Origin: a bacterium
GTDB lineage: Bacteria; Electryoneota; JAOADG01
DNA: 64,000 nt
Direction: 5' to 3'
Assembly: GCA_963681965.1 (NCBI GenBank)
Contig: OY820579.1
Span: 1,530,882 to 1,594,881 of the forward strand
This document shows positions 25,121 through 64,000 of this stretch, piece by piece (position 1 is the stretch's first letter; each line of letters begins with the position of its first letter). Position numbers and translations under genes: made by a program. The notes below the pieces were generated by a model. That model was not told the origin of the DNA. It searched no databases and saw only the letters and a program-made list of their open reading frames with translations.

Positions 25121-25130
25121 GGATGTAACC

Positions 25131-25826: not shown

Positions 25827-25845
25827 CAGATATACGGAGGAAATA

Positions 25846-26121
25846 ATGCCGGATATCACCATTCCGCTACCGAAATGCGGTAACGGTAAAACAGCGGAAA
25901 TTACTATCGAAGTAAGTTGTAAATCGACGCGAGAAACTTTCAAAGTAATGATGGTTTCACGCGAAGAGGAATCCGAAGAAGGTCGAATTCAACGGGTGCA
26001 ACAAATCGTCGATACCGAAACGAAAGAGTGGCAATTGATCACAATCGGCGATCCAGGCATTACCTGTATTCCGATCTTGTTTCGGCATCGCGATACGACC
26101 GATAATCCAACGAATGCATGA
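25846..26121 (+). CDS. Small hypothetical protein (91 aa) inside the export operon
   Basis: Strong SD (GGAGGAAATAATG). Fills the ATPase-permease gap with 19-nt and 33-nt spacers. No signal peptide, no recognised family. Confidence 0.55.
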   Translation: MPDITIPLPKCGNGKTAEITIEVSCKSTRETFKVMMVSREEESEEGRIQRVQQIVDTETKEWQLITIGDPGITCIPILFRHRDTTDNPTNA

Positions 26122-26154
26122 TCCTGGGATAACGACGATGGGAGCAACGATTTT

Positions 26155-28563: not shown

Positions 28564-28619
28564 CAATACGTTTCAGGATCACTGTCGATGAAAATTGATT
28601 AAAAAGTGAGGATCCAAAA

Positions 28620-31034
28620 TTGATTAAGCACTATTTCACGATTGCCACTAGAAATCTGATGAAAAATAAACTGTTTTCACTGATCAATCTCTCGGGATTG
28701 GCAATGGGAATGGCGGCTTGTATTCTCATTTTACTTTACTTGCAATTCGAACTCTCATTTGATCGGAATATCCCGAATTCGGATCGAGTATATCGTATTC
28801 TGACAATCGATAAAGGGCAGGGTGTATCTAGTCAGTATGTGGCGATCGCTTTGCCTCCATTAGGACCAACGCTCGTACAATCATTCCCCGAAGTCGAATC
28901 TTATTGCCGTCTCACCGGTGGTGGACCACAAGTATTGGAGGTCACACCGACTCGTCAAATCGAAGTCAATATTCAACGTAGTGCCGATTCAACGTTATTC
29001 GATGTTTTTGGATTCAAATTATTGAAAGGGAATCCCAAAACTGCTTTGACAAAACCGTATACCGGAGTGATCACTGAATCGCTTGCAAAAATTGTTTTCG
29101 GATCCGCCGATCCGATGGGAAAAACCATTAAATTGAGTTCGGGTTTGCAAGCGACAGTCACCGGAGTTGCCGAAGATCTTCCGGAAAACAGTCATATCAC
29201 ATTCGATATCGTGCTTTCGATGAAAACGCTTGAAGCCTTGCAAAAGGCGGGTTTACCACCGGGAAACACCGGACCGACTTTTCTTGAAAGTTGGACCAAT
29301 TTAGGTCTTCCGACATATGTCCGGTTGAAACAAGGCAGCTCAGCGGCAACGTTCGAAAAGAAAGTTAACAAGTTGTATCGCGAAAAAGGGGTACCGGAAC
29401 CATGGATCCCTTCAGTTCAACCAGTTCAAGATGTCCACTTGAAATCGACCGGAATCATCTTCGATACGAATGCGTTAAAAGGAGATGCATCGTCAATCTA
29501 CACGCTGTCGGCGGTGGCAATCCTTATCCTGTTGATTGCATCGGTTAATTACATGAATCTCAGTACCGCAAGAGTCACATCCCGAGCGAAAGAAGTCGGT
29601 TTAAGGAAAGTTGTCGGATCGGAACGGGCGCAATTGATTTGGCAATTTATCGGCGAATCGATCCTGTTGGCGACTCTCTCAATGATTGTGGCGATTGCAT
29701 TCGCAGAACTCATGTTGCCCTGGTTGAATGGATTGACTGGTTATCACCTCAAGATGAATTACTTCCATAACCCGGTATTAATTCTCTGCGAAATTGGATT
29801 GATTTTGATCGTGGGCGTATTGGCAGGATTTTACCCGGCTTTGGTACTTTCAGGTTTCAAACCGATCGATGTATTAAAAGGTGCTTTCCACTCGTCTCAT
29901 AAGGGTCAATCGTTACGACGGATACTAGTGGTTTTTCAGTTTACACTCTCGATTGGGCTGATCTGTGGAACGATTGTAGTGAATAAGCAATTGCACTTCA
30001 TCTGGACGAAAGACCAAGGGTATAATCGCGAACAGGTATTGATCTTGAATCTCGGCAGTGCAAAAGTAGCGCCGCGAGCGTCAGCAATTCGGGCAGATCT
30101 AAATGCATCGTCATTTGTGGTTTCCACCGGAACAACGGTTTCCACACCGGGTAGTCAATTCAGTCGAAATAATGCCAGACTAGAAAACGATCCAAGTACA
30201 ATGACGCGCATCTGGAGTCAAACTGTCGTCGATTACGATTTCATGAAAACACTGGACATGAAAATCATCAAAGGGCGAGGCTTCTCCCGCGATTATCCGG
30301 GAGATTCGCTTCAATCCGTTGTGATTAACGAAGCAGCTGCCAGAGAGATGGGTACGAGCGATCCGGTAGGAAAGAAAATTTATCAAGGTAGCGCAGATTC
30401 GGTTGGCGCGACTGTAATCGGGGTAGTAAAAGATTTCCATTTCGCTTCGATCCGCGAAAAAGTCGAACCGATGATCATCTTTCTCTTTCCTCGCGAATTA
30501 AACCTACTCTGTGTAAGACTAAAATCCGGATCGGTAAAGGCTGCGATGGTAAATGTCGAATCGATTTGGAAAAAACAGTGTCCGGGTTATCCATTCTCTT
30601 ACCGATTTATGGATCAAGATTTCGAACGGATGTACCGTCAGGAAATCAACTTCTCCAGTATCGTCAATGCGTTTTCCGGTCTGGCAATCTTTATTGCCTG
30701 TTTGGGTTTGTACGGTCTTGCATCGCACAGCACCGAGCAACGTCGCAAGGAAATCGGTATTCGAAAAGTCATGGGGGCATCGGTTATTACGATCACACGA
30801 TTATTGATTATTGATTTTATCAAGTGGGTTCTACTTGCCAATGTGATTGCGTGGCCGGTAGCATATTGGGTGTCGGACCGATGGTTGGCAAATTACCAAT
30901 ATCGAATCGATCAATCTTTACTCATCTTTCCGTTAGCAGGAACGATAGCTTTGTTGATTGCGATAATCTCGATTTATCTCCATGTCTGGCGCGCTGCGCG
31001 GGAGAATCCAATCAAATCGATACGCTACGAATAA
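28620..31034 (+). CDS. ABC transporter permease, FtsX/MacB family (paralog of the preceding gene)
   Basis: 804 aa, collinear with the 26155..28563 product (same N-terminus IKHYFTIATRNLMKNKLFSLINLSGLAMGMA, same C-terminus NPI.S(I/L)RYE). TTG start as in the track. Confidence 0.85.
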   Translation: MIKHYFTIATRNLMKNKLFSLINLSGLAMGMAACILILLYLQFELSFDRNIPNSDRVYRILTIDKGQGVSSQYVAIALPPLGPTLVQSFPEVESYCRLTGGGPQVLEVTPTRQIEVNIQRSADSTLFDVFGFKLLKGNPKTALTKPYTGVITESLAKIVFGSADPMGKTIKLSSGLQATVTGVAEDLPENSHITFDIVLSMKTLEALQKAGLPPGNTGPTFLESWTNLGLPTYVRLKQGSSAATFEKKVNKLYREKGVPEPWIPSVQPVQDVHLKSTGIIFDTNALKGDASSIYTLSAVAILILLIASVNYMNLSTARVTSRAKEVGLRKVVGSERAQLIWQFIGESILLATLSMIVAIAFAELMLPWLNGLTGYHLKMNYFHNPVLILCEIGLILIVGVLAGFYPALVLSGFKPIDVLKGAFHSSHKGQSLRRILVVFQFTLSIGLICGTIVVNKQLHFIWTKDQGYNREQVLILNLGSAKVAPRASAIRADLNASSFVVSTGTTVSTPGSQFSRNNARLENDPSTMTRIWSQTVVDYDFMKTLDMKIIKGRGFSRDYPGDSLQSVVINEAAAREMGTSDPVGKKIYQGSADSVGATVIGVVKDFHFASIREKVEPMIIFLFPRELNLLCVRLKSGSVKAAMVNVESIWKKQCPGYPFSYRFMDQDFERMYRQEINFSSIVNAFSGLAIFIACLGLYGLASHSTEQRRKEIGIRKVMGASVITITRLLIIDFIKWVLLANVIAWPVAYWVSDRWLANYQYRIDQSLLIFPLAGTIALLIAIISIYLHVWRAARENPIKSIRYE

Positions 31035-36551: not shown

Positions 36552-37229
36552 ATGAGAAACAAATTACCGGAACTAACTAGACAACGTGAACGCAAGATCC
36601 TTGATGCCGCACAACTGCGGTTTGCCGCCTATGGCGAACAGCATGCGACGATGGATGAGATTGCCGCCGATGTCGGAATGGGCAAAGCAACGTTGTATTA
36701 CTATTTTCCGTGTAAAGAGCAACTATTTCGAGCGGTAATTGCCCGTGAACAAGAGCAATTCTTGTTGCAACTCCGAAAAATTGCCGCAAAGACAGATGAA
36801 CCGTCAGATAAACTGCGCGAATATGTACAGCATCGAGTTCGGTACTTTCATCGCCTGGTTAATTTAAATGCGTTAAGTATCCAATCGATCCTTGAGATGA
36901 AACCGATCTATCGAGAACTATTTCAACGATTTGCTGTTGAAGAACGAAAACTGATCGCAAAAATTATTACTGACGGCAATCAATCCGGGCATTTTGAGGT
37001 TGACAATCCCGATGAAGTCGCTACTGTATTGCTTCACGCTTTGCACGGACTTCGATGGCGAGCACTGCGGATCGCTTCACACAATCCCGTTCCTGCGGTC
37101 GATCCCCGGGAACTCTTATGTGAAATGAGATTGCTGGTAGATTACCTGATTAAAGGATTTGCTAATGTCGAGCGAACACGAATCGAAACCGAACCATCGC
37201 GAAAACCAAACCGGAAAACCCATGGATAA
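36552..37229 (+). CDS. TetR/AcrR family transcriptional regulator
   Basis: N-terminal HTH (ATMDEIAADVGMGKATLYYYFPCKEQLF) and typical size (225 aa). Confidence 0.85.
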   Translation: MRNKLPELTRQRERKILDAAQLRFAAYGEQHATMDEIAADVGMGKATLYYYFPCKEQLFRAVIAREQEQFLLQLRKIAAKTDEPSDKLREYVQHRVRYFHRLVNLNALSIQSILEMKPIYRELFQRFAVEERKLIAKIITDGNQSGHFEVDNPDEVATVLLHALHGLRWRALRIASHNPVPAVDPRELLCEMRLLVDYLIKGFANVERTRIETEPSRKPNRKTHG

Positions 37230-38178
37230 TCCTGTCAATACTCCAAATCAAGGTAATAGCGATTTGGTCGAAACCACGCTCCCACGTAAGAAATTAGGAT
37301 GGATCATCGCACTGATCGTTCTCATCGTTGCCGGTATTGTCGGTTGGATGATCTATCGCAATTCGCTCGGTTTTATCTCAACCGATAATGCATTTATCGA
37401 TGCCAATCGCATGACCGTGAGTGCGAAAATTCTCGGTCGGATTGCAGAATTATCGATGAAAGAAGGGGATCCGGTTTCCTATGGACAAATTCTTGTCAAA
37501 TTGGATGACAGCGATCTGAAAGCGCAACTGGAGCAAGCGAAGACTGCGATTGTTTTGGCATCGGAGAATATCAAGCTAGCCAAGGTTAGCGAGGCGCGTG
37601 CCGAAGAGGATTTATTGCGCTCGGAAAAATTGAGCAAGGACAACGCGATCACTCGCGAGCAACTCGATCATGCGAATAAAGAGTTGGAAGCAGCGCATGC
37701 CCGCAATGCAATCGCCATCGCGCAGGAGAATTCTGCCAAATCGCAATTGAACGTTGTGGAAACACAATTGAAAAATACTACTGTCGTATCGCAAATGTCG
37801 GGTATTGTCGCGAAACGATGGTTGCTGCCCGGCGATGTAGTGCAACCCGGTCAAGCGATTTATTCACTCTACGATCTGGAAAATGTCTGGGTTACGGCGA
37901 ATTTCGAAGAAACGAAATTGCATTCGATCAAGTTGGACGTAACTGCTGAGATGATGTTAGACGCCTTTCCCGGGATTGTCTGGCACGGAAAAGTATATCA
38001 ATTGGGATCGAATACTGCATCGCAGTTTTCCCTCATTCCGCCAAACAACGCTTCCGGTAATTTTACTAAAGTGACACAACGAGTGCCGGTAAAGATATCG
38101 ATCGAGCATGAAAACAATAGTACTGATCGCAGATTATTACCCGGAATGTCGGTCGAAGTGAAATTGAAGGTCGGATAA
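37222..38178 (+). CDS. HlyD-family secretion protein (EmrA-like adaptor)
   Basis: TM anchor, coiled coil and a C-terminal NFTKVTQRVPVKI motif typical of EmrA. Start set at ATG 37222, giving an 8-nt ATGGATAA overlap with the tetR stop. Confidence 0.8.
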   Translation: MDNPVNTPNQGNSDLVETTLPRKKLGWIIALIVLIVAGIVGWMIYRNSLGFISTDNAFIDANRMTVSAKILGRIAELSMKEGDPVSYGQILVKLDDSDLKAQLEQAKTAIVLASENIKLAKVSEARAEEDLLRSEKLSKDNAITREQLDHANKELEAAHARNAIAIAQENSAKSQLNVVETQLKNTTVVSQMSGIVAKRWLLPGDVVQPGQAIYSLYDLENVWVTANFEETKLHSIKLDVTAEMMLDAFPGIVWHGKVYQLGSNTASQFSLIPPNNASGNFTKVTQRVPVKISIEHENNSTDRRLLPGMSVEVKLKVG

Positions 38179-38181
38179 GCA

Positions 38182-39801
38182 ATGCCGATTTCACCGCATC
38201 ACGCCCTGAAACGGCATATGCACGGTCGATTTGAATCGTTGCATCACGAGCACTCCAACTATAAATGGTGGGTGCTTTTCAATGTGATGATCGGGACCTT
38301 TATGGCGGTGCTCGATGCTACGATTGTCAATGTGGCATTGCCAAAAATCATGGCGACATTCGGCGTTTCCGTCGATAAAGTTGAATGGGTAGTAACTGCC
38401 TATATGCTGGTGTTCGCTGTGATGCTTCCGACTTCGGGTTGGATTGCCGATCATTACGGATACAAGCGAACCTATTTTGGTGCGCTATTTTTATTCACTT
38501 TCGGATCGTTTCTGTGCGGTATGGCATGGAACGAAGATGCACTAATTGTTTTTCGAATCGTCCAGGGTGCCGGTGCCGGTCTTCTTATGCCGGTCGGAAT
38601 GGCAATTGTTACCCGTATCTTTCCAGTCGAGGAACGGGGGATGGCACTCGGTTTCTGGTCAATATCGGCGGCTGCATCAGTCTCATTGGGACCACTCGTG
38701 GGTGGATATCTGGTCGATAACTTCAATTGGAGTTCGATCTTCGATGTCAATATCCCTGTCGGGATGTTCGGAATGTTGGCAACACTGATTATTCAACGAG
38801 AATTCAAAACATCGATCACGAGACGCTTCGACTTTGTTGGATTTACGTCGATGGCTGTGTTTCTTAGTTTCCTGTTGATTGCGCTTTCGGACGGCAATGC
38901 TGCCTGGAATACCGGTGGCTGGACTTCACCCTTTATTCTAACCTGTTTCAGTATTTCATTTGTCAGTTTTGTCATATTTATTACAACTGAACTGACCATC
39001 TTACATCCGTTAATCGAGTTGAATCTACTGAAGAACTTTAATTACTCTGTTACGAATGGCATTTTATTCGTCTTCGGGCTGGGCATGTTCGGCAGCACTT
39101 TTTTGATGCCGCTCTATTTGCAGAATTCGCTCGGTTACACTGCACTACAAGCAGGAGCAGTGTTTCTTCCTGTCGGTATTGCGCAAACACTTGTCTCGCC
39201 GATTGCAGGAATCGTTTCCGACCGTTATTCCCCGAAAATACCTTCGGCGATCGGAATCGTGCTGCTCGCGTATAGTCTCTGGCTCAGTAGTCAGTTGTCT
39301 TTATACACGGAATCGGGTTTCATTCTGTATATGATGGTGTTGCGCGGTTTTGCGATGGGATTGCTCTTTACGCCGCTTAGTGCGTTAGCATTGACAGGAA
39401 TTCCACGACAGAAAATGGCACAGGCGTCTGGATTGTTCAATGTAATAAGGCAGCTCGGTGGAAGCTTCGGAGTTGCGATTATGGGAGCGATGCTGACACA
39501 GAGGATGAATTTTCACCTCACTACCTATGGACAAGCAGTCGATCAACAATCGCCGGTATTCATTCAAATCTCCTCACGATTGCAATTATTTGCTAAAACA
39601 GCTTTGGGAAGTAATACGACCGATGCCGTTTCTCGGGCAAAAGCAATGATGATGAGTCATTTGTCGGCGCAATCGTTTGTCGATGCTATCAATGACGATT
39701 TCCTCATCGCTGCTGCAATAACTATTGTTGGCTTATTTCCAATATTCATTCTCCGGAGTGTCGCGAAAAATCGGAGCATTAAACCGAAGAAAGTTAACTA
39801 G
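38182..39801 (+). CDS. MFS transporter, DHA2 (EmrB/QacA) family, 14 TM
   Basis: FMAVLDATIVNVALPKI and GWIADHYGYKRTY motifs; 539 aa. Confidence 0.85.
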   Translation: MPISPHHALKRHMHGRFESLHHEHSNYKWWVLFNVMIGTFMAVLDATIVNVALPKIMATFGVSVDKVEWVVTAYMLVFAVMLPTSGWIADHYGYKRTYFGALFLFTFGSFLCGMAWNEDALIVFRIVQGAGAGLLMPVGMAIVTRIFPVEERGMALGFWSISAAASVSLGPLVGGYLVDNFNWSSIFDVNIPVGMFGMLATLIIQREFKTSITRRFDFVGFTSMAVFLSFLLIALSDGNAAWNTGGWTSPFILTCFSISFVSFVIFITTELTILHPLIELNLLKNFNYSVTNGILFVFGLGMFGSTFLMPLYLQNSLGYTALQAGAVFLPVGIAQTLVSPIAGIVSDRYSPKIPSAIGIVLLAYSLWLSSQLSLYTESGFILYMMVLRGFAMGLLFTPLSALALTGIPRQKMAQASGLFNVIRQLGGSFGVAIMGAMLTQRMNFHLTTYGQAVDQQSPVFIQISSRLQLFAKTALGSNTTDAVSRAKAMMMSHLSAQSFVDAINDDFLIAAAITIVGLFPIFILRSVAKNRSIKPKKVN

Positions 39802-39838
39802 TTTCTTATAATCGATCGATTAAGTATCGGGTGCAAGT

Positions 39839-41158
39839 ATGAAGATCATTAGGGTTTGGTTATTCTTTACAATATTGATGTGTTCTAGCGTATTAGCCGA
39901 ACCTCGCCAGACGGATTCGTTGACTTTATCCGAAGCTTTGCGTATTGCGGTAGCCAACTATCCGACTGTCGAACAATCGTTCGAGAATTGGCAGTCCGCG
40001 CGTTCCCGCGCCGACCAAAGTAGCACTAGTCTGCAACCGGTTATCGATCTGGAGGCTGGTTATACTTGGTTGAATCCGATCTCAGCAATCGAGATTCCAC
40101 ATTCTCCGCCAATGAAGGTCTATCCGGAGGACAACTATGACATTCATTTGGTCGGTCGATATTTAATCACCGATTTTGGTAAAACGACTTCAGCCATCGA
40201 ATGGAATCGCAAGCGCGCAGCCACTTCCAAATTCAATATCGATATTGCCAAAGCCAACATCGCCTTTTGGACCGCGCAATCGTATTTATCGATAATTTTC
40301 TACCGGAACTCTATTGCGACTCAGACACAATTAATCGAAAACCTTGAGCAACATTTATCACTCACTGAAAAACTGATTGCGGGAGGTGTGGCAATCGATC
40401 TCGATCGCCTTTCGACATCGGTACGAATCGATCTAGCAAAGAACCAGCGATCCGATCTGGAGAATAACATGCGAAAGCAGGAAATCCAGTTGAATCGCTT
40501 ATTGATGAATGTTCAGGATTCGTATGTCAATCTTGTCAATTCGTTTCAAGCAGTCGATACGCTACCGGACGAAGCGCAAGCTGTCGCGATGGCATTGCGA
40601 TTACGACCGGAACTGATTGCTGCCCGTGAAGAAGAAGCGAATACTTTGCTTCAAATTCGATCGATTTCCTTGGGAAATAATCCGAGTGTTGGTGCGTATG
40701 CTCAATGGGGCATGAAGAATGGTATGGAACCGAATATCTATGCGATCCGCGGAAATTCAATTGTAGGATTGAAATTTCAACTTCCAGTGTTCAATGCTGG
40801 AATTGTGAATCACAAAATAGCCGAAGCGAAAGCGATACAAAGAAGCGCATCGGCAAGAACGCGAGAGCTAGAGCGTCAGATTGCTGCGGAAGTGCGTCAA
40901 TCGATCTCCGATCTCAAAGCAGCAATTGTGAAACTTCAAACAGTAGATCGTCAAATCAGATTGTCGCAATCCGAAGTTGAAACTGCTACAGCACGATATC
41001 GCGCTGGAACAATTCGAAATCTCGATCTGCTGGATGCTGAAACGACTTTTGCCCAAGTCAAATTGTTAAAAACTCAAGCTGAGTTTGCTTATACCATGAC
41101 CCAGTACGCGCTAGCCAAAGCAGTTGGTACCGAGTATTGGAACAATCAATCCAAATAG
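39839..41158 (+). CDS. TolC-family outer membrane efflux protein
   Basis: Signal peptide, two-fold internal repeat architecture, 439 aa, and position between two efflux pumps. Confidence 0.75.
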   Translation: MKIIRVWLFFTILMCSSVLAEPRQTDSLTLSEALRIAVANYPTVEQSFENWQSARSRADQSSTSLQPVIDLEAGYTWLNPISAIEIPHSPPMKVYPEDNYDIHLVGRYLITDFGKTTSAIEWNRKRAATSKFNIDIAKANIAFWTAQSYLSIIFYRNSIATQTQLIENLEQHLSLTEKLIAGGVAIDLDRLSTSVRIDLAKNQRSDLENNMRKQEIQLNRLLMNVQDSYVNLVNSFQAVDTLPDEAQAVAMALRLRPELIAAREEEANTLLQIRSISLGNNPSVGAYAQWGMKNGMEPNIYAIRGNSIVGLKFQLPVFNAGIVNHKIAEAKAIQRSASARTRELERQIAAEVRQSISDLKAAIVKLQTVDRQIRLSQSEVETATARYRAGTIRNLDLLDAETTFAQVKLLKTQAEFAYTMTQYALAKAVGTEYWNNQSK

Positions 41159-41191
41159 CGTTTGCGATCATTTTCGGTCGATCGAGGACTC

Positions 41192-42244
41192 ATGAAAAGC
41201 AAAATGAAATACGTCTGGTTGTTAATAGTGCTGATCATATTAGGTTCGGTGATTTTTTGGCGAATTAAATCGCGAACCGATCCAGTCGATGCGAAGCGAC
41301 AAAACTCAGTACAAGTAAAAGCAGATTTGCCAAAGTCTGACACCATTGTCTATACGCTGAATTATACCGGCGATGTTGCATCGATGCAACAGGCGAACAT
41401 TTATGCGAAAGTCACCGGTAACATCGAAAAGATATTTGTAAATATCGGTGAATCGGTCAAAGAGGGACAACTGTTGGCGCTGATCGATACGACCGAACTA
41501 TCGCAATCTTATATGCAATCGCTGGCAACTTTCGAAAATGCGCGGTTGACTTACAACCGGGTTAGCGGTCTCTTCGATCAGAAATTAGCTTCGAAACAGG
41601 ATTTCGATAACAGTAAAACTGCATTCGATATCGCGAAAGCAAATTTTGAATCGACGAAGTTACGGCTCAGTTATGCTTGGATTTGTGCGCCGTTTTCGGG
41701 AGTGATCACAAAACGGTATTTCGATCAAGGTGCGATGGTGACTTCGACAAACACGATCCTATTCAATTTGATGGATGCAAATTCGATGAAGTTGACAATC
41801 GAATTGTTGGAGAAAGATATCGCGCTGGTAAAAAGTGGAATGCCCGTCACAATATCGGTCGACGCATTTCCGGGTAAAAAGTATTCCGGTATTGTGAGCC
41901 GGTTCAGCGAGGCGATTGATCCTGCAACCCGAACGATGGATACCGAAATTAGAGTTCCCAATGTTGGAAGAGAGTTGAAACCGGGCATGTTCGCTCGTGC
42001 CGCGATTGTCGTCGATCGTCATGAGAATGCCTTAACTATCCCGACACAGGCGATTGCGAAAAATGAATCGGGAGCGACAATCTTTACAGTATCGAATGGC
42101 ATCGCGAAACGAGTTAAGATTGAAGTCGGAAAAGAGCAAGGCACAATTTCCGAAGTGACCAAAGGAATCGATGCTGAGGATAGTGTCATTACCGTTGGGA
42201 TGCAATCCGTCCGGGATGGTGGTAAGGTTAACGTTCAGAAATAG
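41192..42244 (+). CDS. Efflux RND periplasmic adaptor subunit
   Basis: MKSKMKYVWLLIVLIILGS anchor, and the ICAPFSGVITKR..GAMV lipoyl/beta-barrel motif. Start set at ATG 41192, after GAGGA. Confidence 0.8.
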   Translation: MKSKMKYVWLLIVLIILGSVIFWRIKSRTDPVDAKRQNSVQVKADLPKSDTIVYTLNYTGDVASMQQANIYAKVTGNIEKIFVNIGESVKEGQLLALIDTTELSQSYMQSLATFENARLTYNRVSGLFDQKLASKQDFDNSKTAFDIAKANFESTKLRLSYAWICAPFSGVITKRYFDQGAMVTSTNTILFNLMDANSMKLTIELLEKDIALVKSGMPVTISVDAFPGKKYSGIVSRFSEAIDPATRTMDTEIRVPNVGRELKPGMFARAAIVVDRHENALTIPTQAIAKNESGATIFTVSNGIAKRVKIEVGKEQGTISEVTKGIDAEDSVITVGMQSVRDGGKVNVQK

Positions 42245-42258
42245 AAAGCAGTCGCATT

Positions 42259-45200
42259 ATGTGGCTTACTAGATTAGCGCTTCGTTATCCGATTTCAACC
42301 TTTTTGTTCGCTGTGACGCTTGTCGTACTGGGACTCGTCTCGTTCGGACAGTTACAAGTCGATTTGTTACCGGATATCTCGATTCCAGTTGTTAGTACGG
42401 TGACTTATTATTCCGGTGCCGGTCCATTGGATATGGAGCAATCGGTAACGGTGATTACCGAACGAGCCGTGAGTTCGGTGAATGACGTCGATTATATCCA
42501 ATCTACCACCCGGGAAGGGGTTTCGCGGGTTCGCATCAATTTCAACTGGGATGCCAATGTCGATGTCGGGGTTGTCGACATTGTGCAACGCGTAAACCGA
42601 ATTATCAATCAACTTCCAACCGGTGTATCGCAACCCACCGTTCAACGCTTCGATATCACTTCGCAACCGGTCTGTACGATTGCACTATCCGGCGAAATGG
42701 ATGAGCGAGATTTGTATGATCTTGCCTACAATATCATCGAACCGCAAATCGAACATTTATCAGGTGTGGCATCAGCCAACGTTTCCGGTGGTCGAATTCG
42801 CGAAATTCATATTGTACTGGATCGAAATCGACTTCAAGCGTTACAAATACCCGTTCAATCGGTGTTAAATGCAATCGCAAATTCGAATTTAATTATCCCA
42901 TCTGGCGACTTGAAGGTTGGAAAATACGACTATTCATTGAAAACCGAGAGTCGTTTCAATATGGTCAAACCGATTGAATCGATCGTCGTTAAGAATATGA
43001 ATAGTGTTCCAATTCGGTTAAGCGATGTCGCTAAAGTCGAAGACAGTTATATTGAGCAGACGCAATTGATTCGGGTCGATGGAAAACCCGGGATCATGTT
43101 CGAAGTACAAAAACTTTCCAAAGCGAATACGATCGATGTCGTCGACCGTGTCATGCGTGCAATTCCCAAATTGAATGGCATCCCGCCGACAGTTCGGATG
43201 TCGATCACCTTCGATCAATCGGTATACATTCGCCAGACGATGACCGGTCTTCAGCACGAAGCCTTGATCGGTGCGCTACTGGCAATGGCAATCATCTTCT
43301 TTTTCTTGCGCAATATCAAGGGAACTACAATTATTCTGGTAGCAATTCCGCTATCGATCTTGTTTACCTTCATCTTTTTCCGGTTTGCCGGCATTACATT
43401 GAATATCATGACTTTTGGCGGATTGGCACTCGCGATCGGGCGGTTGGTTGACGATTCGATTGTCGAGCTGGAAGCAATATCGCGCCACTACAATACCCGG
43501 CAAAAGGGGCAATCGAAGCTTCAAGCCACACTCGATGCTGCGAAAGAAGTGGCAGCGCCGATTTTTATCTCGACACTTAGTACGATTATTGTTTTCCTAC
43601 CGATTATTTTCTTAACCGGTATCGCCAAATTGTTGTTTATCCCATTAACGATAACCATCGCTATCGCCTTGATGGGATCATTCCTAGTCTCGCGAACCGT
43701 TACACCGTTACTCTGTTTGAAATTTCTCCCACCCGAGAAACATCTCAACCGTGAATCGAAGCAGTTCTGGGATCGCATGCAAGTATGGTCATTCGAATTG
43801 ATCGAAACACTCGATCGCATCTATGAAAACCGTTTGCGATGGGCTTTGGCGAATCGAAAATTGATGGTGTTTTCAATTGTACTACTAGGGATTATATCTG
43901 CTTGCCTATTTAATTTCATCGGGTCGGAATTCTTCCCCGATCAGGATGAAAGTCAATTTACCGTCAATGTGAAATTGCCAGTTGGTACGCGCGTGGACGA
44001 AACGGACAAGTTCATGCGCATCGTCGAAAAAATTGTTCGCGATAATGTACCGGAATTGAATACGATTATTACAAATATCGGAGTGGCATCGTCGCGTGGC
44101 GGTGGGGGAGGTGGTCGTGGTAATTCGGGGTCGCATGCCGGAAATGTCCAAGTATCTTTGAAACCAGTGAAGGATCGCGATCGATCGGTATTTGAAATCG
44201 TGAAAGCGCTCCGACCGAAACTGAATCGCGTTGCCGGTGCATCGATCATGGTCAATACCGGTGGTATGATGAAATTCCTGATGAATTTTGGATCATCGGC
44301 ACCGATCGACGTGGAAATTCGCGGTTACGATCTCGAAACTGGAACTAAACTAGCTAAAAAAATCCTGGGGATTGTCAATGAAACTCGCGGTGCAACCGAC
44401 GCCCAAATAACTCGCGAAGATAATTTACCGGAATTGCGGGTAAAAATCGATCGCGAAAAGGCAGGTGTACTCGGGGTAAACGTTGCCCAAATTGCAAATA
44501 CGATCAATACTTGCATCAACGGTTCGGTTGCTTCGTTATACACCGATCCGGTATCGGGAAATCAGTATAATATTCTGGTACGGTTGAGTGAAGATTATCG
44601 CAATGAACTTGACGATCTTGGCAACATCGTGCTAGCTAATAGCGACGGTCAATCGATATTATTGCGCAATATCGCAACGATTGAACGAACGAATTCGCCG
44701 GTTCAGATCGATCGAAAATATCAGCAACGATTGGTCGAAGTCACAGCCAATGTTTCCGGACGTGATTTAGGAAGTGTCGCGAAGGATATCAAAGCGCGGT
44801 TGGATAGTCTGGTCGTACCACCCGGATTTGAACTCAAGTTGAGTGGCAATGTCGAGAAGCAGAAGCAAACCTTTTCGGATCTACTGTTAGCATTTGGTCT
44901 AGCTATTTTATTGGTGTATGTGGTGATGTCTTCGCAATTCCAATCGTTGCTAGACCCCTTCATCATTATGTTTACCGTACCATTAGGTTTAATTGGGGTA
45001 CTGTGGACGCTTTTCCTCACGAATACGACACTTTCAGTTACATCCTTTCAGGGGATTATCGTGATGGTAGGTATTGTCGTCAGTAATGGAATTTTGTTAG
45101 TCGATTTTACTAATCATATCCGACGTACCGGCGTACCGCTTGTCGATGCAGTGGTCAAAGCAGGTGTAACCCGGCTCAAGCCGATTATCATGACTTCGCT

Positions 45201-45396
45201 TGTTACCGTTCTCGGACTATTACCCATGGCACTGAGTATCGGCGGTGAATCAACTCAGGCACCGCTTGCACTAGCTGTGATTGGTGGATTATCTGTTTCG
45301 ACCTTACTTACCCTATTCTTCGTACCAGTGATGTATACGATCTTTGAAGAACGGGTAAAGAGTAAAAAAGTAGTTGAAGAACAGGATGAAGACTGA
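42259..45396 (+). CDS. RND efflux transporter permease (AcrB/HAE1 family)
   Basis: 1045 aa with 12-TM topology and two large periplasmic loops. Includes the GLALAIGRLVDDSIV motif. Confidence 0.9.
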   Translation: MWLTRLALRYPISTFLFAVTLVVLGLVSFGQLQVDLLPDISIPVVSTVTYYSGAGPLDMEQSVTVITERAVSSVNDVDYIQSTTREGVSRVRINFNWDANVDVGVVDIVQRVNRIINQLPTGVSQPTVQRFDITSQPVCTIALSGEMDERDLYDLAYNIIEPQIEHLSGVASANVSGGRIREIHIVLDRNRLQALQIPVQSVLNAIANSNLIIPSGDLKVGKYDYSLKTESRFNMVKPIESIVVKNMNSVPIRLSDVAKVEDSYIEQTQLIRVDGKPGIMFEVQKLSKANTIDVVDRVMRAIPKLNGIPPTVRMSITFDQSVYIRQTMTGLQHEALIGALLAMAIIFFFLRNIKGTTIILVAIPLSILFTFIFFRFAGITLNIMTFGGLALAIGRLVDDSIVELEAISRHYNTRQKGQSKLQATLDAAKEVAAPIFISTLSTIIVFLPIIFLTGIAKLLFIPLTITIAIALMGSFLVSRTVTPLLCLKFLPPEKHLNRESKQFWDRMQVWSFELIETLDRIYENRLRWALANRKLMVFSIVLLGIISACLFNFIGSEFFPDQDESQFTVNVKLPVGTRVDETDKFMRIVEKIVRDNVPELNTIITNIGVASSRGGGGGGRGNSGSHAGNVQVSLKPVKDRDRSVFEIVKALRPKLNRVAGASIMVNTGGMMKFLMNFGSSAPIDVEIRGYDLETGTKLAKKILGIVNETRGATDAQITREDNLPELRVKIDREKAGVLGVNVAQIANTINTCINGSVASLYTDPVSGNQYNILVRLSEDYRNELDDLGNIVLANSDGQSILLRNIATIERTNSPVQIDRKYQQRLVEVTANVSGRDLGSVAKDIKARLDSLVVPPGFELKLSGNVEKQKQTFSDLLLAFGLAILLVYVVMSSQFQSLLDPFIIMFTVPLGLIGVLWTLFLTNTTLSVTSFQGIIVMVGIVVSNGILLVDFTNHIRRTGVPLVDAVVKAGVTRLKPIIMTSLVTVLGLLPMALSIGGESTQAPLALAVIGGLSVSTLLTLFFVPVMYTIFEERVKSKKVVEEQDED

Positions 45397-52341: not shown

Positions 52342-53484
52342 TTAACCTTCGATTAAATGCGGTACAAACCGACTTGTGTTGGTCGTGATAAGCGTGTTTG
52401 ATTCGCGAATCCCAATCCCAGCCGCTTCACCACCGATGACCCATGACCCGATAACGGGATAGTTTTGATTGAAATTGGGTAATTCGCAAAGCTGCTGCAC
52501 AATAAATCCTTCTTCACCGTATTCACCACCCGATCCCGCGAGTAATTTATTTTGCTTAATCAAATCGATATTGGCACCTTCGCGAGAAAAAATCGGTTTG
52601 CGGGCATAATCGGATAGACTATGTGATTCGCTATCGAAATATGCAGGAAGTAGATATGGACAGCTTTTATGCATCCGATAGAGAATCGGTAAAAATCCTT
52701 TATTACTAACGATCATTTTCCAAGCTGGTTCGATCCAATATGCCTTATTGATATCCTTCAAGAGGTTTTGACCGAATTCCTCATGGATCAACCATTCCCA
52801 CGGATACAATTTGAAAATATTCTTGATCGAATCTTCGTTCAGGTCGGTAAATTCGTTGCTCGATCCATTCCAACCGATATCTTCGACCGCGATATATTCA
52901 GTCAACAAACCCGCTTGGATCGCAGTATCCCGCATGTATTCAGTGGTGATAATATCTTCGGTGTTGTCTGATACCGAAGCGAAATAGACTCTTCGAACGC
53001 CAAAGTACGGTTTCAGTTCAGTCCAGTATGCGATCAATTTCTCGTGAATCGAGTTAAATTGGTCGGCATGTTGATTGAAATCTTGCAACCAGTGCCATTG
53101 AACAACCGACGATTCCAGTAGTGATGTCGGAGTATCGGCATTGTACTCCAACATTTTGGGTACGCCATTGCCATCAAAACGAAAATCGAACCGACCGTAG
53201 ATCGAGGGTTCGTCTTCATTCCATGATCGCAAAATAATAGGTATAAATTCGTCCGGGATGCATAATTGGCTATACAAATTGTGATCGATAATCTGTTGAA
53301 CAGTATCCAAACACAACTCATGCAGCTCGTTAGTCGCCTTTTCCAAGGTGAGAATTTCATTCATCGTAAAGCTGTAATAAGCCGACTCGTCCCAATACAC
53401 ATCGCCAAGAGTGTGAAATGAAAACCCGAGTGCTTCGACCTTGGACTGCCAATCTTTTCGCGGAGTAATTTCAACACGTTTCAT
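52342..53484 (-). CDS. Glutathionylspermidine synthase family protein (YjfC-like ATP-grasp)
   Basis: 380 aa. N-terminus PRKDWQSKVEALGFSFHT..YWDESAYY, and the blocks YGRFDFRFDG and EYNADTP are typical of the GspS pre-ATP-grasp/synthetase family. Confidence 0.8.
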   Translation of the reverse strand: MKRVEITPRKDWQSKVEALGFSFHTLGDVYWDESAYYSFTMNEILTLEKATNELHELCLDTVQQIIDHNLYSQLCIPDEFIPIILRSWNEDEPSIYGRFDFRFDGNGVPKMLEYNADTPTSLLESSVVQWHWLQDFNQHADQFNSIHEKLIAYWTELKPYFGVRRVYFASVSDNTEDIITTEYMRDTAIQAGLLTEYIAVEDIGWNGSSNEFTDLNEDSIKNIFKLYPWEWLIHEEFGQNLLKDINKAYWIEPAWKMIVSNKGFLPILYRMHKSCPYLLPAYFDSESHSLSDYARKPIFSREGANIDLIKQNKLLAGSGGEYGEEGFIVQQLCELPNFNQNYPVIGSWVIGGEAAGIGIRESNTLITTNTSRFVPHLIEG

Positions 53485-58593: not shown

Positions 58594-59320
58594 ATCTTTC
58601 TCCTCTGAAAATCGCGCTAGTTTTGTTTGAACGCAGATAACAACACTAGGTTCCCAAGAAAATTTTGAACTCTACGGAAACAGAAAACCGCTTTCAATGA
58701 TTAGATGTTATCGTCGATAAAATCGTTGCGTTTGTTGAATAACTCTTTCTAAAGGTGTGAACTGCAACACATGATTTCATCGGTTGTATCTTGTCAATTC
58801 ATTAGTTCGATTTTGATCCTGATGAATATTTGTACCTATCCATATACCAGTTCTTCGCCGCGTAAAGCGAAAACATCAGGTTACATTCGATGGTCTTGAA
58901 TACTGAAAATTCTCTAAAAAAATTCAATTAGTGCTGATCGGCTTGATTCGAAAGCTTTCGCTCGATGTGAATGATCGAGCTGTAAGTTTTTTCAATGAAC
59001 TCGCTTAAATGGAATTAAAACCGATAGATAGAGTGAATCAGTCACTCGTCACTAAAAGTACGGAAACCAGCATGCACTTTTGCTAGGATTATTGAAAATT
59101 TGTATTTTTTTTCTCATTCTAATTAAGTGTATGATTGGTATGAATTAAGATTGAATTTCGAAATTATGTATAGAATAAGGCAATGTGTTGCTATTCACAT
59201 AATTTGCTCATAGATCGAAAAACGATTTTTATTTTTGCTTGTTTACAAATTGAGACACTTGTCAAAAATCGTTACATTATGCCGTCTAGTATTAGTTTGT
59301 TCAATCCTACGGAGATCATT

Positions 59321-61507
59321 ATGAAGCAAAATGTTATCGTTGGCTTGGTGATGCTTCTTACAGTAGTATTGGCCGGATTAGGTTTTGCCTATCCGCGCAC
59401 AGTACTAATGGAAGACTACACCAACTACTCTTGACCTTACTGCGCGACGGGTCATAATTGGCTCGTTCCATACCTTGCGGGGCAAGGTAGTGTCCAATAC
59501 ATCCAATATCACGAAAATTATCCGGGTCCCAATGATCCGTGGTATCTCGCCAATACTCCTCAAGCCGATTCATTGCGTTCCACTTATGGCGTAACCGGTT
59601 ACCCGACTTATGCGATTGATGGTACGACGATTGTCGGATTCGGTCTCTCATCGACTCCCAACACGATCACAACCCGAGTTAATACCCGGTTGGCGATTGC
59701 GTCACCAGTGTGGTTGAAGGTATCGATGGATCCGACCACGAACGATACGATTATCGTGACAGTAAAGGCTGTGGCGAGTTCAGCGATTACGAACAGCTCG
59801 CTGAAGATTTACTTGACCGAAACCCTGGAAACATGGGCAACCCCGGCACCGAATGGTGTGAACCGTTGGGAATTCCCGTTCGTATCGGCTTCACCCTCGG
59901 TAGCCGGAATTGCATTTACCCATACCGGTACTACGACCGATACACTGACCTTTACCGCCCGGTTTGCACCACGAAGAACTGGTACGGAACCTTATAACAA
60001 GGATAGTTGCAGCGTGATTGCATTCGTGCAGAATAATACTTCACACGAAGTATACCAGTCTGCCCGATGCCACACCATCGTGTCACCGACCAATAACCGA
60101 ACCTATTTGATCGGTACTGCACTCCCGATTATCTGGAATCCATACTATACTACCGACATCATGAACATTCTGATCAATCGGAGTTATCCGTCTGGCACTT
60201 GGGACACCATCGCTGCCAATATTCCGAACTCAGGATATTTCGATTGGACTGCTACCGGACCGATCACCTACAACGCGCGTCTACTGGTGAAATCGACAAC
60301 GCATCCGCTCAATGTCGATACTTCGATCATCACGATAACCAGTAATACTACTTTGCAAGTGTCACCGAATCCTATTTCGATGACTGTCGCTGCTGGCGAT
60401 ACAGTGCGTACTAACGTACTGATCTCGAACAATGGGAGCGCGCCGTTTACCGGTACGCTTGCCGCGACTACTGGATCACTAGGTTATACTTCACTCTCTT
60501 CATCACAAGCGTATGGTCCTGAAGTAGGCTGGTACGACACGGAAGCCGGGGATCCGGGAGCGCACGGCGACGATTCATTATCGGGACCTTATGTGCTGCC
60601 ATTCAGATTCCCGTTCTACGGTACGAATTATACCAACGTCTATATGTGCACCAACGGATATCTCTGCTTCTCAACGGCAGTTGGAGCGTTGTATACAAAT
60701 GCATCGCTTCCATCCGGTTATCCGATGATTTGCCCGTACTGGGACGACTTTGTCGTTAGCGGTACGGCTGTTACCCAAGTCTATGTAGATGCCGATAGTG
60801 GTTATGCCATTTTCTCTTGGCAGAATGTGCCGCGATACGTGACAAGTGGTTCAGGTGGTAACTTCAATTTTGAAGCGATCCTTCGTTCCGACGGTACAGT
60901 TGAATTCCAGTATGATGTGTTAACTGGAACCCTCAACTCGGCTACAATCGGTATTTCGAATGGTACCATTGCCACGCAGGTGATTTACAATCAGACTGCC
61001 ACGCAGTACTTCGCATACAAATTCACTCCCGGTGTGATTTGGTCGTCACCAAGTACTACGGTGTTGAGCATTCCGGTCGGTCAGAGCCAAACGATCAGCA
61101 CACTGTTTGACGCGCGGCGGTTGACTGCCGGTCAGACATTGAATGGTACATGGGTGATCACAGGTAACATGGCAGCTTCGATTACCGTGCCAGTTTCTAT
61201 TATCACTACCGCGACTGGCGTTGCTGAAAACGGAGCAATGGTTCATCGTTACAATCTTGAAAATGCATATCCCAATCCGTTTAACCCGACAACATCGATT
61301 CGCTACGAGATTCCGCGTGCCGATCGAGTTGTGCTGAAACTATACGACAGTAACGGTCGATTGGTCGAAACACTGTTTGATGGAACCAGCATTGCGGGGA
61401 AACATACTCAAATGATCGATGCAACCAAGCTTGCATCGGGTATGTATTTTGTCAAGATGAATTCTGGCAATTTTAACGCTACTAAGAAAATTATGTTAGT
61501 GAAGTAA
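59321..61507 (+). CDS. T9SS-sorted thioredoxin-fold (Omp28-like) surface protein with one in-frame TGA (59432-59434) at the first Cys of its CxxC motif; candidate selenoprotein, alternatively a nonsense pseudogene
   Basis: GGAGA RBS and ATG 59321, giving signal peptide MKQNVIVGLVMLLTVVLAGLGFA. ORFs 59183..59434 and 59573..61507 are in the same frame, with no other stop. Read-through gives EDYTNYS-U-PYCATG...YGVTGYPTYAIDG. The C-terminus YPNPFNPTTSIRYEI..KIMLVK is a T9SS sorting domain. Confidence 0.7.
59471..59489 (+). other. Stable hairpin downstream of the in-frame TGA (candidate SECIS-like element)
   Basis: UACCUUGC-GGG-GCAAGGUA: 8-bp perfect stem and an all-G triloop. The stem base is 36 nt and the loop 44 nt after the TGA. 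Confidence 0.3.
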
Positions 61508-61524: not shown

Positions 61525-61560
61525 AAAAAAACGGAACCTCAGTGAGGTTCCGTTTTTTTT
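61525..61560. terminator. Bidirectional rho-independent terminator
   Basis: A7, then ACGGAACCTC-AGT-GAGGTTCCGT (10-bp perfect stem), then T8. Starts 18 nt after the stop at 61507. Confidence 0.85.
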
Positions 61561-61784: not shown

Positions 61785-62447
61785 TCAGCACCCTTCCTTT
61801 TTCTTCTTGCCGCCACTTGCTGCTGGTGCGGATGAACCACCACCACTTGGCATCGGCTTCGGAGGTTCCATTTTCGGAGTTGTGGCTGGATTGCTTCCGG
61901 TTTGTGGAGTTCCACCGAAGAACTTACTCACTTCGCTCATTTTAGTGAATTCTGATTGTTGTTGTGTCGTTGCATTCACCGCAATCTTTGGAAATAAGAT
62001 ACGGTCATTCCACTCTTCCAGACCTCCGAAAAGAATATAGACCGCTTTATATCCTTTCGACCGCAGTAGGAACCATGCTTGTGCCGAATGGATCCCCCCT
62101 TCGGAATAAAGTACGAGCTTCTCAGTATGCGAGAAATTAGCGTCGGTAATTTTCGCCGTCGGAATATTCTCGGAAGTCGGAATGTGATAGTCACGGTATT
62201 CTTGTTCCGATCGCAGATCGATCAATCGGTAGTCTGCACTCCTCTTCATTATCCAATCGGTGAGTTCGGTTACATCGATATGATCGACTTTGTTGTCTAC
62301 TATCATTGCCAGTTCTTTTGCATCGATTGTTACCGAAGTACCGTGATAAGGATTTCCCGCAAATACCGCCAATAATCCCAAAGTAAAAGCTAATAGCGCG
62401 AGTTTACGGTTGCGTGAAAGCGATTTCCAGAAAGTCATTTTGACCAT
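61785..62447 (-). CDS. Membrane-anchored rhodanese-like domain protein (active-site Cys replaced by Ser)
   Basis: Rhodanese pattern: IDLRSEQEYRDYHIP..LVLYSEGGIHSAQAWFLLRSKGY..LFGGLEEW. The loop position normally holding Cys is TCC (Ser). Pro/Gly/Ser-rich C-terminal tail. Confidence 0.65.
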   Translation of the reverse strand: MVKMTFWKSLSRNRKLALLAFTLGLLAVFAGNPYHGTSVTIDAKELAMIVDNKVDHIDVTELTDWIMKRSADYRLIDLRSEQEYRDYHIPTSENIPTAKITDANFSHTEKLVLYSEGGIHSAQAWFLLRSKGYKAVYILFGGLEEWNDRILFPKIAVNATTQQQSEFTKMSEVSKFFGGTPQTGSNPATTPKMEPPKPMPSGGGSSAPAASGGKKKKEGC

Positions 62448-62465
62448 CCTTGTAGCTATCGAAGA

Positions 62466-63056
62466 TTATTTCGCAAATTTATTTTCGACCCATTCCGCAC
62501 CGGCAAAACCACCAATCGCCATGAGGACTACAGCGAATACTAGTACTCCGTAAGGGATATTGAGTAGCTGCGATAAGGTGATTTGTCCCATCGAAGTCGA
62601 ATTGTAGAACGATTCCAACATCGGGAACATTTCACCGAAAACGAATATTCCGAAGAATATTCCCAGCAGATAAATCATCCCATCGATTTTTCCCGTTGCT
62701 GCTGCAACGCATGATGTACCTGGACAATATCCACCAATCACGAATCCAATACCGAGTATCAATCCACCGATCGTCTGAGGAAGGATGTATGTAGGTGTCA
62801 AATACACTTGCGATAAATCCATGAAGCCGATCCACGAGAGCCAGAAAATGCCCAGCATCGCAGTAATGATTGCGGTAAACATTACTTTGAATACGGTCAA
62901 GTCGGTAAAGTAGAATTGAGCAGCTAACTTACGACCACTGCCGAATCCGGCGCGTTCCAGAAAGAAACCGAAACCAATTCCGATAGCAAATGCGAGAATT
63001 AAACTAACTTCATCGTTGAACATTCCGAATTTGTAAAAGGGTGCGTTCATTTCCAC
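62466..63056 (-). CDS. YeeE/YedE family (sulfur-transport domain) membrane protein
   Basis: Multi-TM protein of 196 aa with the GGYCPGTS motif. Confidence 0.75.
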   Translation of the reverse strand: MEMNAPFYKFGMFNDEVSLILAFAIGIGFGFFLERAGFGSGRKLAAQFYFTDLTVFKVMFTAIITAMLGIFWLSWIGFMDLSQVYLTPTYILPQTIGGLILGIGFVIGGYCPGTSCVAAATGKIDGMIYLLGIFFGIFVFGEMFPMLESFYNSTSMGQITLSQLLNIPYGVLVFAVVLMAIGGFAGAEWVENKFAK

Positions 63057-63613
63057 TGTCTCCTCATGAAGTATGCCATCGCATAAGCACCGGTAAATAC
63101 CATCATCATAAACGACCAGCTCCCGACATTCAGTACCGATCCGCCGGTGAGTGCTTGTCCGCTAGTACATCCCCGTGCCAACTTGGCTCCGAATCCCATC
63201 AGCGAACCGCCGATGAACGCAAAAATCAATCGTCCGGCAATCGAGATATGCGGTCCTTTCTCGACTCCTTTCCGTACCCGATTGGCTAATACACCCGAGA
63301 AAAATCCTCCGACAAACACGCCCAACACCTCGAATACCAACCAATCTTTGAATGGGCTTTTCGATCCGTCACCGAGGTACTCGGAATAGAATCCATTACC
63401 GGAAGCATGAGCAGGCGCTAGTTTACTGATCGTTACCGAGGTGGCGGTCGAGAATGCACCGGAGGCTCCCAAGCCGCGACCCATGATGACATAGGAAAGC
63501 AATAGCACTAACCCCAAACCGATTCCGGCGAGATAAGGATTCCAATACGGTTGAGCGACTCGTTCGACAGTCGTCTTAATAGTACTGGTAGTAGTTGTCG
63601 TTGATGAAGCCAT
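63047..63613 (-). CDS. YeeE/YedE family (sulfur-transport domain) membrane protein
   Basis: Multi-TM protein of 188 aa with the ARGCTSGQ motif. 10-nt overlap with the downstream paralog. Confidence 0.75.
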   Translation of the reverse strand: MASSTTTTTSTIKTTVERVAQPYWNPYLAGIGLGLVLLLSYVIMGRGLGASGAFSTATSVTISKLAPAHASGNGFYSEYLGDGSKSPFKDWLVFEVLGVFVGGFFSGVLANRVRKGVEKGPHISIAGRLIFAFIGGSLMGFGAKLARGCTSGQALTGGSVLNVGSWSFMMMVFTGAYAMAYFMRRQWK

Positions 63614-63655
63614 ATCATTGCTCCCGCGATGTATCGCGATAGATGATTCCTGATA

Positions 63656-64000
63656 TTAATGAAATAAATTTACATGATTGTGTATTGTGTTGATCCAGCT
63701 ACTCTGCTGCCCGGCAGATACAATAATGAATCGTAAAAATAGACCGCCTAATATTACCGTGACCGGTGCAATTGCTGTATGATTCACTTTGTGATTGACT
63801 GCAAGCAACTGAATAATGAGTGGAATGACAATACCTATTCCCACCACGAGCACCCAAAATGGTGCAGCAAACGAACCATTCAACAATAAATGTGCTGCGG
63901 CTTGATGAGCCTGTGTCGAACTGAGCAATCCTATCAGATAAAGACCCAATACAATCAATTCGAAAATTAAAAAACCATTGTCGGCTTTCGCCAGTAACTC
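63656..64000 (-). CDS. NrfD/PsrC-like integral membrane subunit, C-terminal part (the 5' end lies beyond the right window edge)
   Basis: The frame stays open from 63656 to 64000 (ELLAKADNGFLIFELIVLGLYLIG..FAAPFWVLVVGIGIVIPLIIQLL..). The TTG start in the track is only the first start-like codon inside the window. Confidence 0.45.
   Translation of the reverse strand, partial: ELLAKADNGFLIFELIVLGLYLIGLLSSTQAHQAAAHLLLNGSFAAPFWVLVVGIGIVIPLIIQLLAVNHKVNHTAIAPVTVILGGLFLRFIIVSAGQQSSWINTIHNHVNLFH

Follow-up and report, generated by a model that had tools for sequence, protein, structure and literature searches.

Within the 64,000-nucleotide stretch of the bacterial contig OY820579.1 analyzed here (hereafter the window), the segment 59321-61507 is very probably a single gene coding for a selenoprotein of 728 residues, in which the in-frame UGA at position 59432 specifies selenocysteine (Sec). 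This reading rests on an alignment column shared between Sec and Cys, on the conservation of the TGA itself, on purifying selection acting on both sides of it, and on covarying hairpins downstream of it in the mRNA. The encoded protein joins a thioredoxin-like N-terminal module to a C-terminal type IX secretion system (T9SS) sorting domain, and we propose that it is a surface-displayed redox protein related to a previously predicted kind of selenoprotein.

A TGA codon in place of the first redox cysteine

Translation of 59183-61507 gives a single frame whose only internal stop is the TGA at 59432-59434, in the context YTNYS-TGA-PYC, and the list of open reading frames (ORFs) likewise places 59183..59434 and 59573..61507 in the same frame. 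In public gene calls the gene appears as two pieces, an ORF of 83 aa and a protein of 593 aa (P0001); more generally, the NCBI annotation cuts the Sec forms of this family at the TGA, leaving them with no other name than "T9SS type A sorting domain-containing protein". The likely start codon is the ATG at 59321. The 37 codons between it and the TGA score as coding in their codon usage and encode a signal peptide followed by a strand, YPRTVLMEDYT, the latter being conserved in homologs.

With the N-terminus in Cys-substituted form as query, a word-indexed search returned no homolog; the residues just 3' of the TGA, used in an exhaustive HMMER search, recovered 616 relatives. The full-length relatives present a C-x-x-C motif at the exact place of the TGA-x-x-C of the window, as exemplified by P0003 (YPRAVLMEEFMSSTCGPCATASLW) and P0004 (YPRTVLFEEFTNTSCGPCASSHVW); the first Cys of this motif is the counterpart of the TGA in both of these as well as in P0009, L011-L015, L017, L018, L020 and L021, and at the DNA level the column holds a Cys codon (TGC or TGT) in at least 10 loci. 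We also fetched the DNA of N-terminally truncated relatives and of loci from genome (GTDB-representative) and metagenome scans, of which the former was made without the source genome and the latter contributed eight loci. An in-frame TGA occupies the same column in 10 further distinct loci, which brings the distinct Sec-form loci to 11 with that of the window. The motifs are U-S-F-C in L004, a paralog from the same genome; U-A-P-C in L005; U-G-P-C in L006 (identical in L007, with a further gene copy, L009b, in L009), L010, L024, L025 and L026; U-P-G-C in L008; U-S-Y-C in L019; and U-P-T-C in L023. All ten encode a signal peptide and the strand YPRxVLxE ahead of the TGA, and none contains a second stop or a frameshift. 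Furthermore, among the 150 best representatives of the family, about 40 have gene calls that start just after the CxxC position, and all eight of those checked in DNA have a TGA there, which suggests that truncated calls hide many selenoprotein genes in this superfamily.

The same genome provides a direct view of the selective constraint, as L004, at ~0.85 Mb on the same contig, is 69% identical to the window gene. Between the two, the ratio of nonsynonymous to synonymous substitution rates (dN/dS) is 0.25 for the 37 codons that precede the TGA, 0.13 for the 97 codons lying between it and the called start and 0.16 over the remainder of the domain, with dS at 0.75-1.28; no part of the gene is better conserved than the 97 codons, at 82% amino-acid identity. 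Such a dS, together with low dN/dS on both sides, points to an old duplication whose copies have been translated on both sides of a retained TGA, and this retention under two-sided constraint in turn effectively excludes a pseudogene or a base-call error.

These data also bear on the alternative that the UGA is a true stop, which would either end a 37-residue peptide ahead of a separate protein with an internal start or serve regulatory termination. The two ORFs of the public annotation agree with it, as does a sigma-70-like site, TTGACC-16 nt-CATAAT (59431-59458, + strand; 10/12), which is the best such match of the region and overlaps the TGA codon. This site is, however, probably a chance match because its hexamers are not conserved in L004, and the called starts vary between homologs. 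Moreover, the stretch directly after the TGA, conserved as it is, encodes essential elements of the thioredoxin fold, and a product starting downstream would lack both the signal peptide and the first beta strand and yet retain a T9SS tail. As such a tail needs a signal peptide and the post-TGA ORF has none of its own, read-through is supported and a true stop is very unlikely.

Of about the same low probability is read-through without Sec, by near-cognate suppression with Trp or Cys or by a lineage-wide reassignment of UGA. The Sec machinery of this genome is a presumed one and the lineage an unclassified bacterial one, both of which favor this explanation; but of the 41 window ORFs with 200 codons or more, 13 end in TGA, conserved genes among them, and TGA was confirmed in this role at 16043-16045 and 25118-25120. 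In addition, the column is Cys in homologs, making a classical Sec/Cys pair, the conserved and covarying hairpin with a G-rich loop described below has no role in simple suppression, and a related family is accepted as a predicted selenoprotein.

A pseudogene, in the form of a nonsense mutation in a Cys-form Omp28-like gene whose frame has still to decay, is more improbable again: gene callers do split the gene and another T9SS gene of the window looks frameshifted, but the TGA is shared with a paralog at a dS of ~0.75-1.3 and with 9 further distinct loci from unrelated samples, and dN/dS stays at 0.13-0.25 on the two sides of the codon, with no second stop or frameshift in any of these loci. 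That the true codon is TGC or TGT and the TGA a sequencing or assembly error is barely credible, since, although the assembly appears to be long-read (ENA ERZ21878129 contig_1, 4,339,467 bp) and one nearby gene may carry an indel, long-read errors are mostly indels rather than G/A substitutions and the same codon recurs at a second locus of the genome and in independent JGI, Logan and NCBI assemblies.

An earlier note, made from the sequence of the window by itself, had described one frame from the ATG at 59321 to 61507 split only by the TGA, had placed that codon where the first Cys of a CxxC pair is expected, and had proposed it as a candidate Sec codon, adding that TGA terminates conserved genes here and that its global reassignment is unlikely. 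Each of these points was upheld: the column is Cys or TGA in the relatives, with one Ser paralog as the exception, the Sec assignment gains support from the 11 TGA loci, the selection and the hairpins, and the decay that the note had named as a mark of a pseudogene is nowhere apparent, the TGA recurring in 10 other loci.

The exceptional Ser form is a third paralog of the source genome, P0013 (L027:5001-7247, ~2.89 Mb), which has Ser (AGC) at the column in an S-P-E-C motif, so that two Sec forms and a Ser form coexist in one genome. Elsewhere, in L006:340-5055 and L009:3001-5637, a Cys-form gene, P0003, is immediately followed on the same strand by the Sec-form P0007. The Sec forms P0006 and P0008 map to the NCBI metagenome-assembled genome (MAG) GCA_030247525.1, from which the Cys-form P0004 probably also comes, its accession number being adjacent; one host MAG (MAG12) is listed as "Bacteria (k)", that is, unclassified at the phylum level (PMC10390337). 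In a rough neighbor-joining tree the Cys forms are nested among the Sec forms, and this nesting implies repeated Sec/Cys switches in the family. The Sec, Cys and Ser paralogs that coexist in one genome offer a natural series on what selenium contributes at the active site.

Covarying hairpins downstream of the UGA

We examined the potential recoding signal on a gap-free alignment of 9 Sec-form sequences covering 69 nt from the UGA onward, for which we specified a model of two hairpins, one proximal and one distal. In this model 85.9% of the cells are paired, a share that falls to 28-52% if the partners are displaced by 1-3 nt, and the covariation score of 0.324 compares with 0.149 in shuffles, not one of 500 shuffles reaching the observed value. 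In the distal hairpin 5 of the 8 pairs show compensatory double changes around an apical loop of 3-5 nt (GGG, CGGGU, GGC, CGGGC or CGUCG). In the proximal hairpin one pair has a double change (A-U to U-A), and its conservation is in part due to the encoded peptide A.xH.WL.P. The distal helix is maintained across a change of the encoded residues: L025 has LTSWG in place of the LAGQG of the others, yet its UCCUCA/UGGGGA helix still forms. RNAalifold, run on the in-register alignment without a supplied structure, recovers both hairpins, whereas a naive MAFFT alignment with L008 and L023 in it, thrown out of register by a one-codon insertion, yielded no more than a helix of 4 bp. At the same coordinates the Cys-form genes can form on average 3.3 of 7 proximal and 3.3 of 8 distal pairs, which is about chance, and the Ser-form paralog in L027 can form 3 of 7 and 5 of 8; judged by this pairing, both hairpins are absent from the Cys-form and Ser-form relatives.

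Several results weigh against the selenoprotein reading, and most of them concern this putative selenocysteine insertion sequence (SECIS). At the level of the genome, no tRNA and no selA, selB, selC or selD gene lies within the 64-kb window, and in a codon-usage scan of the window, L002 and L004 (~100 kb) the only TGA-interrupted genes were the target and its paralog, so that no other selenoprotein gene and no independent hint of Sec decoding emerged there. At the level of the RNA, Rfam yielded no family over the whole window at gathering thresholds or over 59380-59580 at E up to 10, the single-sequence fold of 59426-59520 has z = -1.1 and is not significant alone, and the best-hairpin energies of the Sec (-12.2 kcal/mol) and Cys (-9.8 kcal/mol) forms fail to separate the two. 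A covariance model (R1) scored the held-out Sec-form L008 at 22.9 bits and the close Cys-form P0003 at 23.2 bits; since L008 did not rank above P0003, we rejected R1 as a clean classifier of Sec and Cys forms. The 23 bits of P0003 may themselves be a relic of Sec ancestry. Furthermore, the distant Sec forms L019 and L023 lack the shared distal hairpin and use different hairpins, and the proximal loop has no conserved G. Finally, the distal loop stands ~44 nt from the UGA, which exceeds the 16-37 nt range from UGA to loop in the bSECISearch consensus. Bacterial SECIS elements are nevertheless variable, and some lie beyond the consensus (PMC12013277, PMC9312934). We suggest that the distal G-rich loop would be the contact for SelB and that the proximal hairpin would shorten the effective spacing between this loop and the UGA. 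The check for a SECIS element that the earlier note had raised came out in favor of one, as conserved and covarying hairpins follow the UGA and the distal one has a small G-rich loop, with the caveats that the spacing is long, that no Rfam family matches and that R1 does not discriminate cleanly.

Protein architecture, known relatives and proposed function

By inspection, the protein begins with a signal peptide in which the n-region MKQN leads into a hydrophobic h-region and GFA precedes YP, and the n-, h- and c-regions are equivalent in all Sec-form and Cys-form homologs; the protein bears this signal peptide only if the UGA is read through. The domain searches on the full-length protein were run with Sec replaced by Cys. 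Pfam Omp28 (PF11551, threshold 34.9 bits) scores 31.1 bits on the full-length read-through product and 35.8 bits on the domain fragment; among 61 relatives, 47 match Omp28 and 43 have a T9SS tail. An AlphaFold (AF2) model of residues 39-270 (predicted local distance difference test 86.9, predicted template-modeling score 0.85) has a thioredoxin topology followed by a beta-sandwich. In Foldseek its top match in the Protein Data Bank (PDB) is HBP35 (5y1a; E 2.8e-7, template-modeling score (TM) 0.57, 212 aligned columns), and Omp28 (2r2c) matches the sandwich with a TM of 0.71-0.81 on the target. Sequence-profile matches in the PDB are the thioredoxins 1fo5 and 1nho, which we take to be the archetypes of cd02973 TRX_GRX_like. 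The full-length AF2 model is all beta, with an Ig-like array at ~60100-61200, and matches only generic arrays of Ig domains in the PDB. The sorting domain at the C-terminus exceeds the cutoffs of both PF18962 and TIGR04183, and at least five other sorting-domain genes are present in the examined parts of the same genome, an indirect sign that it has T9SS machinery. Fold and sorting domain thus emerge directly from the analysis, and with them the three parts that the earlier note had recognized by eye, namely a signal peptide upstream of the TGA on read-through, a thioredoxin-fold/Omp28-like module and a T9SS tail, are all confirmed.

The closest previously predicted selenoprotein is "hypothetical protein GOS_C", for which 74 Sec and 312 Cys sequences with a Trx-like fold, SECIS-like elements and an unknown function were reported (Zhang and Gladyshev 2008; PMC2398784). 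NCBIfam has a model for it, NF045500, under the name "Omp28-related selenoprotein"; a 2026 review gives NF045500 as "Hypothetical protein GOS_C" with the motif UxxC (PMC13188914, Table 1), and the GOS_C family has been assigned to cd02973 TRX_GRX_like (PMC9312934). GOS_C and the window protein share U-x-x-C with Sec for the first Cys in an Omp28-related Trx-like fold, many Cys homologs, a SECIS-like hairpin with an apical G and a presumed role in thiol redox. They differ in that the window protein falls outside the equivalog, in a separate clade: against NF045500 it scores 18.0 and 20.7 bits, below the cutoff of 200, although the model matches 8 of 9 and 43 of 61 of its relatives (E 4.6e-20 for the best of these). 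We accordingly regard the window gene as a distant member of an already predicted kind of selenoprotein and not as a new class. The 2008 paper and the reviews say nothing of a signal peptide for GOS_C, of its placement in the outer membrane or of the T9SS, and a full-text literature search for selenoprotein or selenocysteine together with T9SS gave nothing relevant. The proposal in the earlier note of an undescribed class of surface selenoprotein therefore has to be narrowed, as a related UxxC family was predicted in 2008, but it stands insofar as no paper was found that links selenoproteins to the T9SS. The novelty is modest and lies in the T9SS architecture, the geometry of the two-hairpin SECIS and the coexisting Sec, Cys and Ser paralogs.

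Among characterized proteins, the N-terminal module is structurally closest to the above-mentioned HBP35 of Porphyromonas gingivalis, a T9SS cargo located at the cell surface with measured thioredoxin activity (PMC2907840, PMC3120885). Both proteins have a sorting domain and a thioredoxin active-site motif; however, this motif has Cys in HBP35 and Sec in the window protein, the sequence similarity is not significant (profile E 0.83, 17% identity), and HBP35 binds hemin and lacks the NIDO and Ig-like extension. Omp28 (PF11551, 2r2c) resembles the beta-sandwich half of the window protein, but Omp28 proper is a lipoprotein, whereas the window protein has a T9SS tail. Lacking a lipobox Cys in its signal peptide, the window protein is not an Omp28-type lipoprotein, and it scores 32-36 bits against NF033782, the Omp28 family outer membrane lipoprotein model (cutoff 150). 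Families of DsbA-like, DsbG-like and thiol:disulfide interchange proteins, TonB-dependent receptors and MtrB/PioB proteins work outside the cytoplasm. The predicted bacterial selenoproteins include a DsbA-like, a DsbG-like and a thiol:disulfide interchange protein and an FCYXU-type TonB-dependent receptor (PMC13188914), and the CXXCH selenoprotein of the GSU2204 family is listed as an MtrB/PioB outer-membrane beta-barrel (PMC13188914, Table 1). These resemble the window protein in being Sec proteins by name, several with UxxC in a Trx fold, but none of them is described as a T9SS cargo.

In light of this architecture we infer the steps of Sec insertion, SelB binding and surface anchoring, as well as the kind of substrate, as follows. 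The UGA would be decoded as Sec by SelB and tRNA-Sec in response to the mRNA element directly 3' of it, formed by the proximal hairpin (11 nt after the UGA) and then the distal G-rich loop (~44 nt). The pre-protein would cross the inner membrane via the Sec translocon by means of its N-terminal signal peptide, the T9SS would recognize the C-terminal sorting domain and move the product across the outer membrane, and the product, if it behaves like other type A cargo, would then probably be anchored at the cell surface. There the thioredoxin head with its U-P-Y-C center might be held away from the cell on the Ig-like and NIDO domains, the center cycling between a selenolthiol and a selenenylsulfide. 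The most likely function is that of an extracellular oxidoreductase acting on thiol-disulfide (or sulfur, selenium or metal-thiolate) substrates.

Such a protein would join selenocysteine, which is normally discussed for cytoplasmic and periplasmic redox enzymes, to type IX secretion and surface display, and it points to extracellular selenol chemistry in bacteria of fen soil, sediment and bioreactors. It also suggests that a sizeable group of surface selenoproteins is hidden in the databases, where the existing NCBIfam model misses this clade. A bolder reading, to which we give only tentative weight and which we consider rather unlikely in its entirety, is that the clade constitutes the first recognized T9SS-cargo, surface-displayed selenoprotein of uncultured, phylum-unclassified bacteria, with an atypical two-hairpin SECIS and coexisting Sec, Cys and Ser versions. 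Were this so, these versions could be switched with selenium supply, comparable to the Sec/Cys isoenzyme pairs of methanogens, or the paralogs could instead divide extracellular sulfur, selenium or metal redox tasks among themselves.

Feature coordinates and genomic setting

Table 1. Features of the probable selenoprotein gene and its flanks, in window coordinates.
Feature	Position	Strand	Remarks
Shine-Dalgarno-like GGAG	59311..59314	+	6-nt spacer to ATG 59321; identical GGAGATCATTATGAAGCAA in paralog L004
Probable selenoprotein gene	59321..61507	+	728 codons including Sec38; ATG 59321 to TAA 61505-61507
Sec-type signal peptide MKQNVIVGLVMLLTVVLAGLGFA	59321..59389	+	No lipobox Cys; cleavage site predicted from sequence
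Thioredoxin-like subdomain	59390..59692	+	beta1, UxxC-alpha1, beta2, alpha2, cis-Pro loop GYPT, beta3-beta4, alpha3
UGA codon, probable selenocysteine U38	59432..59434	+	First position of the U-P-Y-C redox motif; column alignment
Proximal hairpin of the SECIS region	59446..59467	+	Begins 11 nt past the UGA; 88.9% of cells paired in 9 Sec forms
Distal hairpin of the putative SECIS, UACCUUGC-GGG-GCAAGGUA	59471..59489	+	Putative SelB-binding apical loop; compensatory changes
Omp28-type beta-sandwich subdomain	59708..60073	+	Pfam Omp28 35.8 bits on fragment; Foldseek 2r2c
NIDO (nidogen-like) match	60635..60796	+	Pfam 28.4 bits, cutoff 25; within the Ig-like array
T9SS type A C-terminal sorting domain	61268..61495	+	PF18962 48.5 bits (cutoff 27); TIGR04183 48.4 (cutoff 23)
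Intrinsic terminator hairpin CGGAACCTC-AGT-GAGGTTCCG	61532..61560	both	Strong hairpin with T-run; A-run upstream (bidirectional); read by eye

The bidirectional terminator, which is missing from the output of a consensus scan, separates the gene from a convergent Psr/Phs-like set on the opposite strand (61785-64000, continuing in L002:6225-11829). This set comprises a molybdopterin oxidoreductase (735 aa), a 4Fe-4S protein and NrfD, and also holds two YeeE/YedE half-genes and a rhodanese, a composition by which the neighborhood is predicted to serve sulfur or selenium handling. We considered this neighborhood as a clue to the function of the selenoprotein and rejected it, given that the convergent, terminator-separated arrangement provides no operon link and that the paralogs sit in unrelated contexts without a Psr/Phs-like set.

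The apparently frameshifted T9SS gene referred to above lies at 10532-13227 on the - strand as two ORFs in different frames that overlap by 271 nt, one with a partial DUF7948 domain (12148-13227) and the other with a T9SS tail (10532-12418). An intact 937-aa gene of the architecture DUF7948-SBBP-T9SS is present at L027:7694-10507, in comparison with which the window copy seems to carry a frameshift, which may reflect a true pseudogene or an indel introduced by long-read sequencing. Beside it is a remnant of an insertion sequence with a fragment of Transposase_mut (13254-13901, - strand), and a second remnant, a DUF772/DDE_Tnp_1 transposase (22012-23007, + strand), adjoins an unannotated ORF of 309 aa. 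A homolog of glutathionylspermidine synthase (52342-53484, - strand; PF03738, 490 bits) marks thiol metabolism in the region. The window further contains two efflux clusters on the + strand, of which the one at 23801-31034 codes for an HlyD adaptor, an ABC ATPase and two tandem MacB-type permeases of ~800 aa, and the one at 36552-45396 for a TetR regulator, HlyD, an EmrB-type MFS transporter, an outer-membrane factor, a further HlyD and an RND permease.

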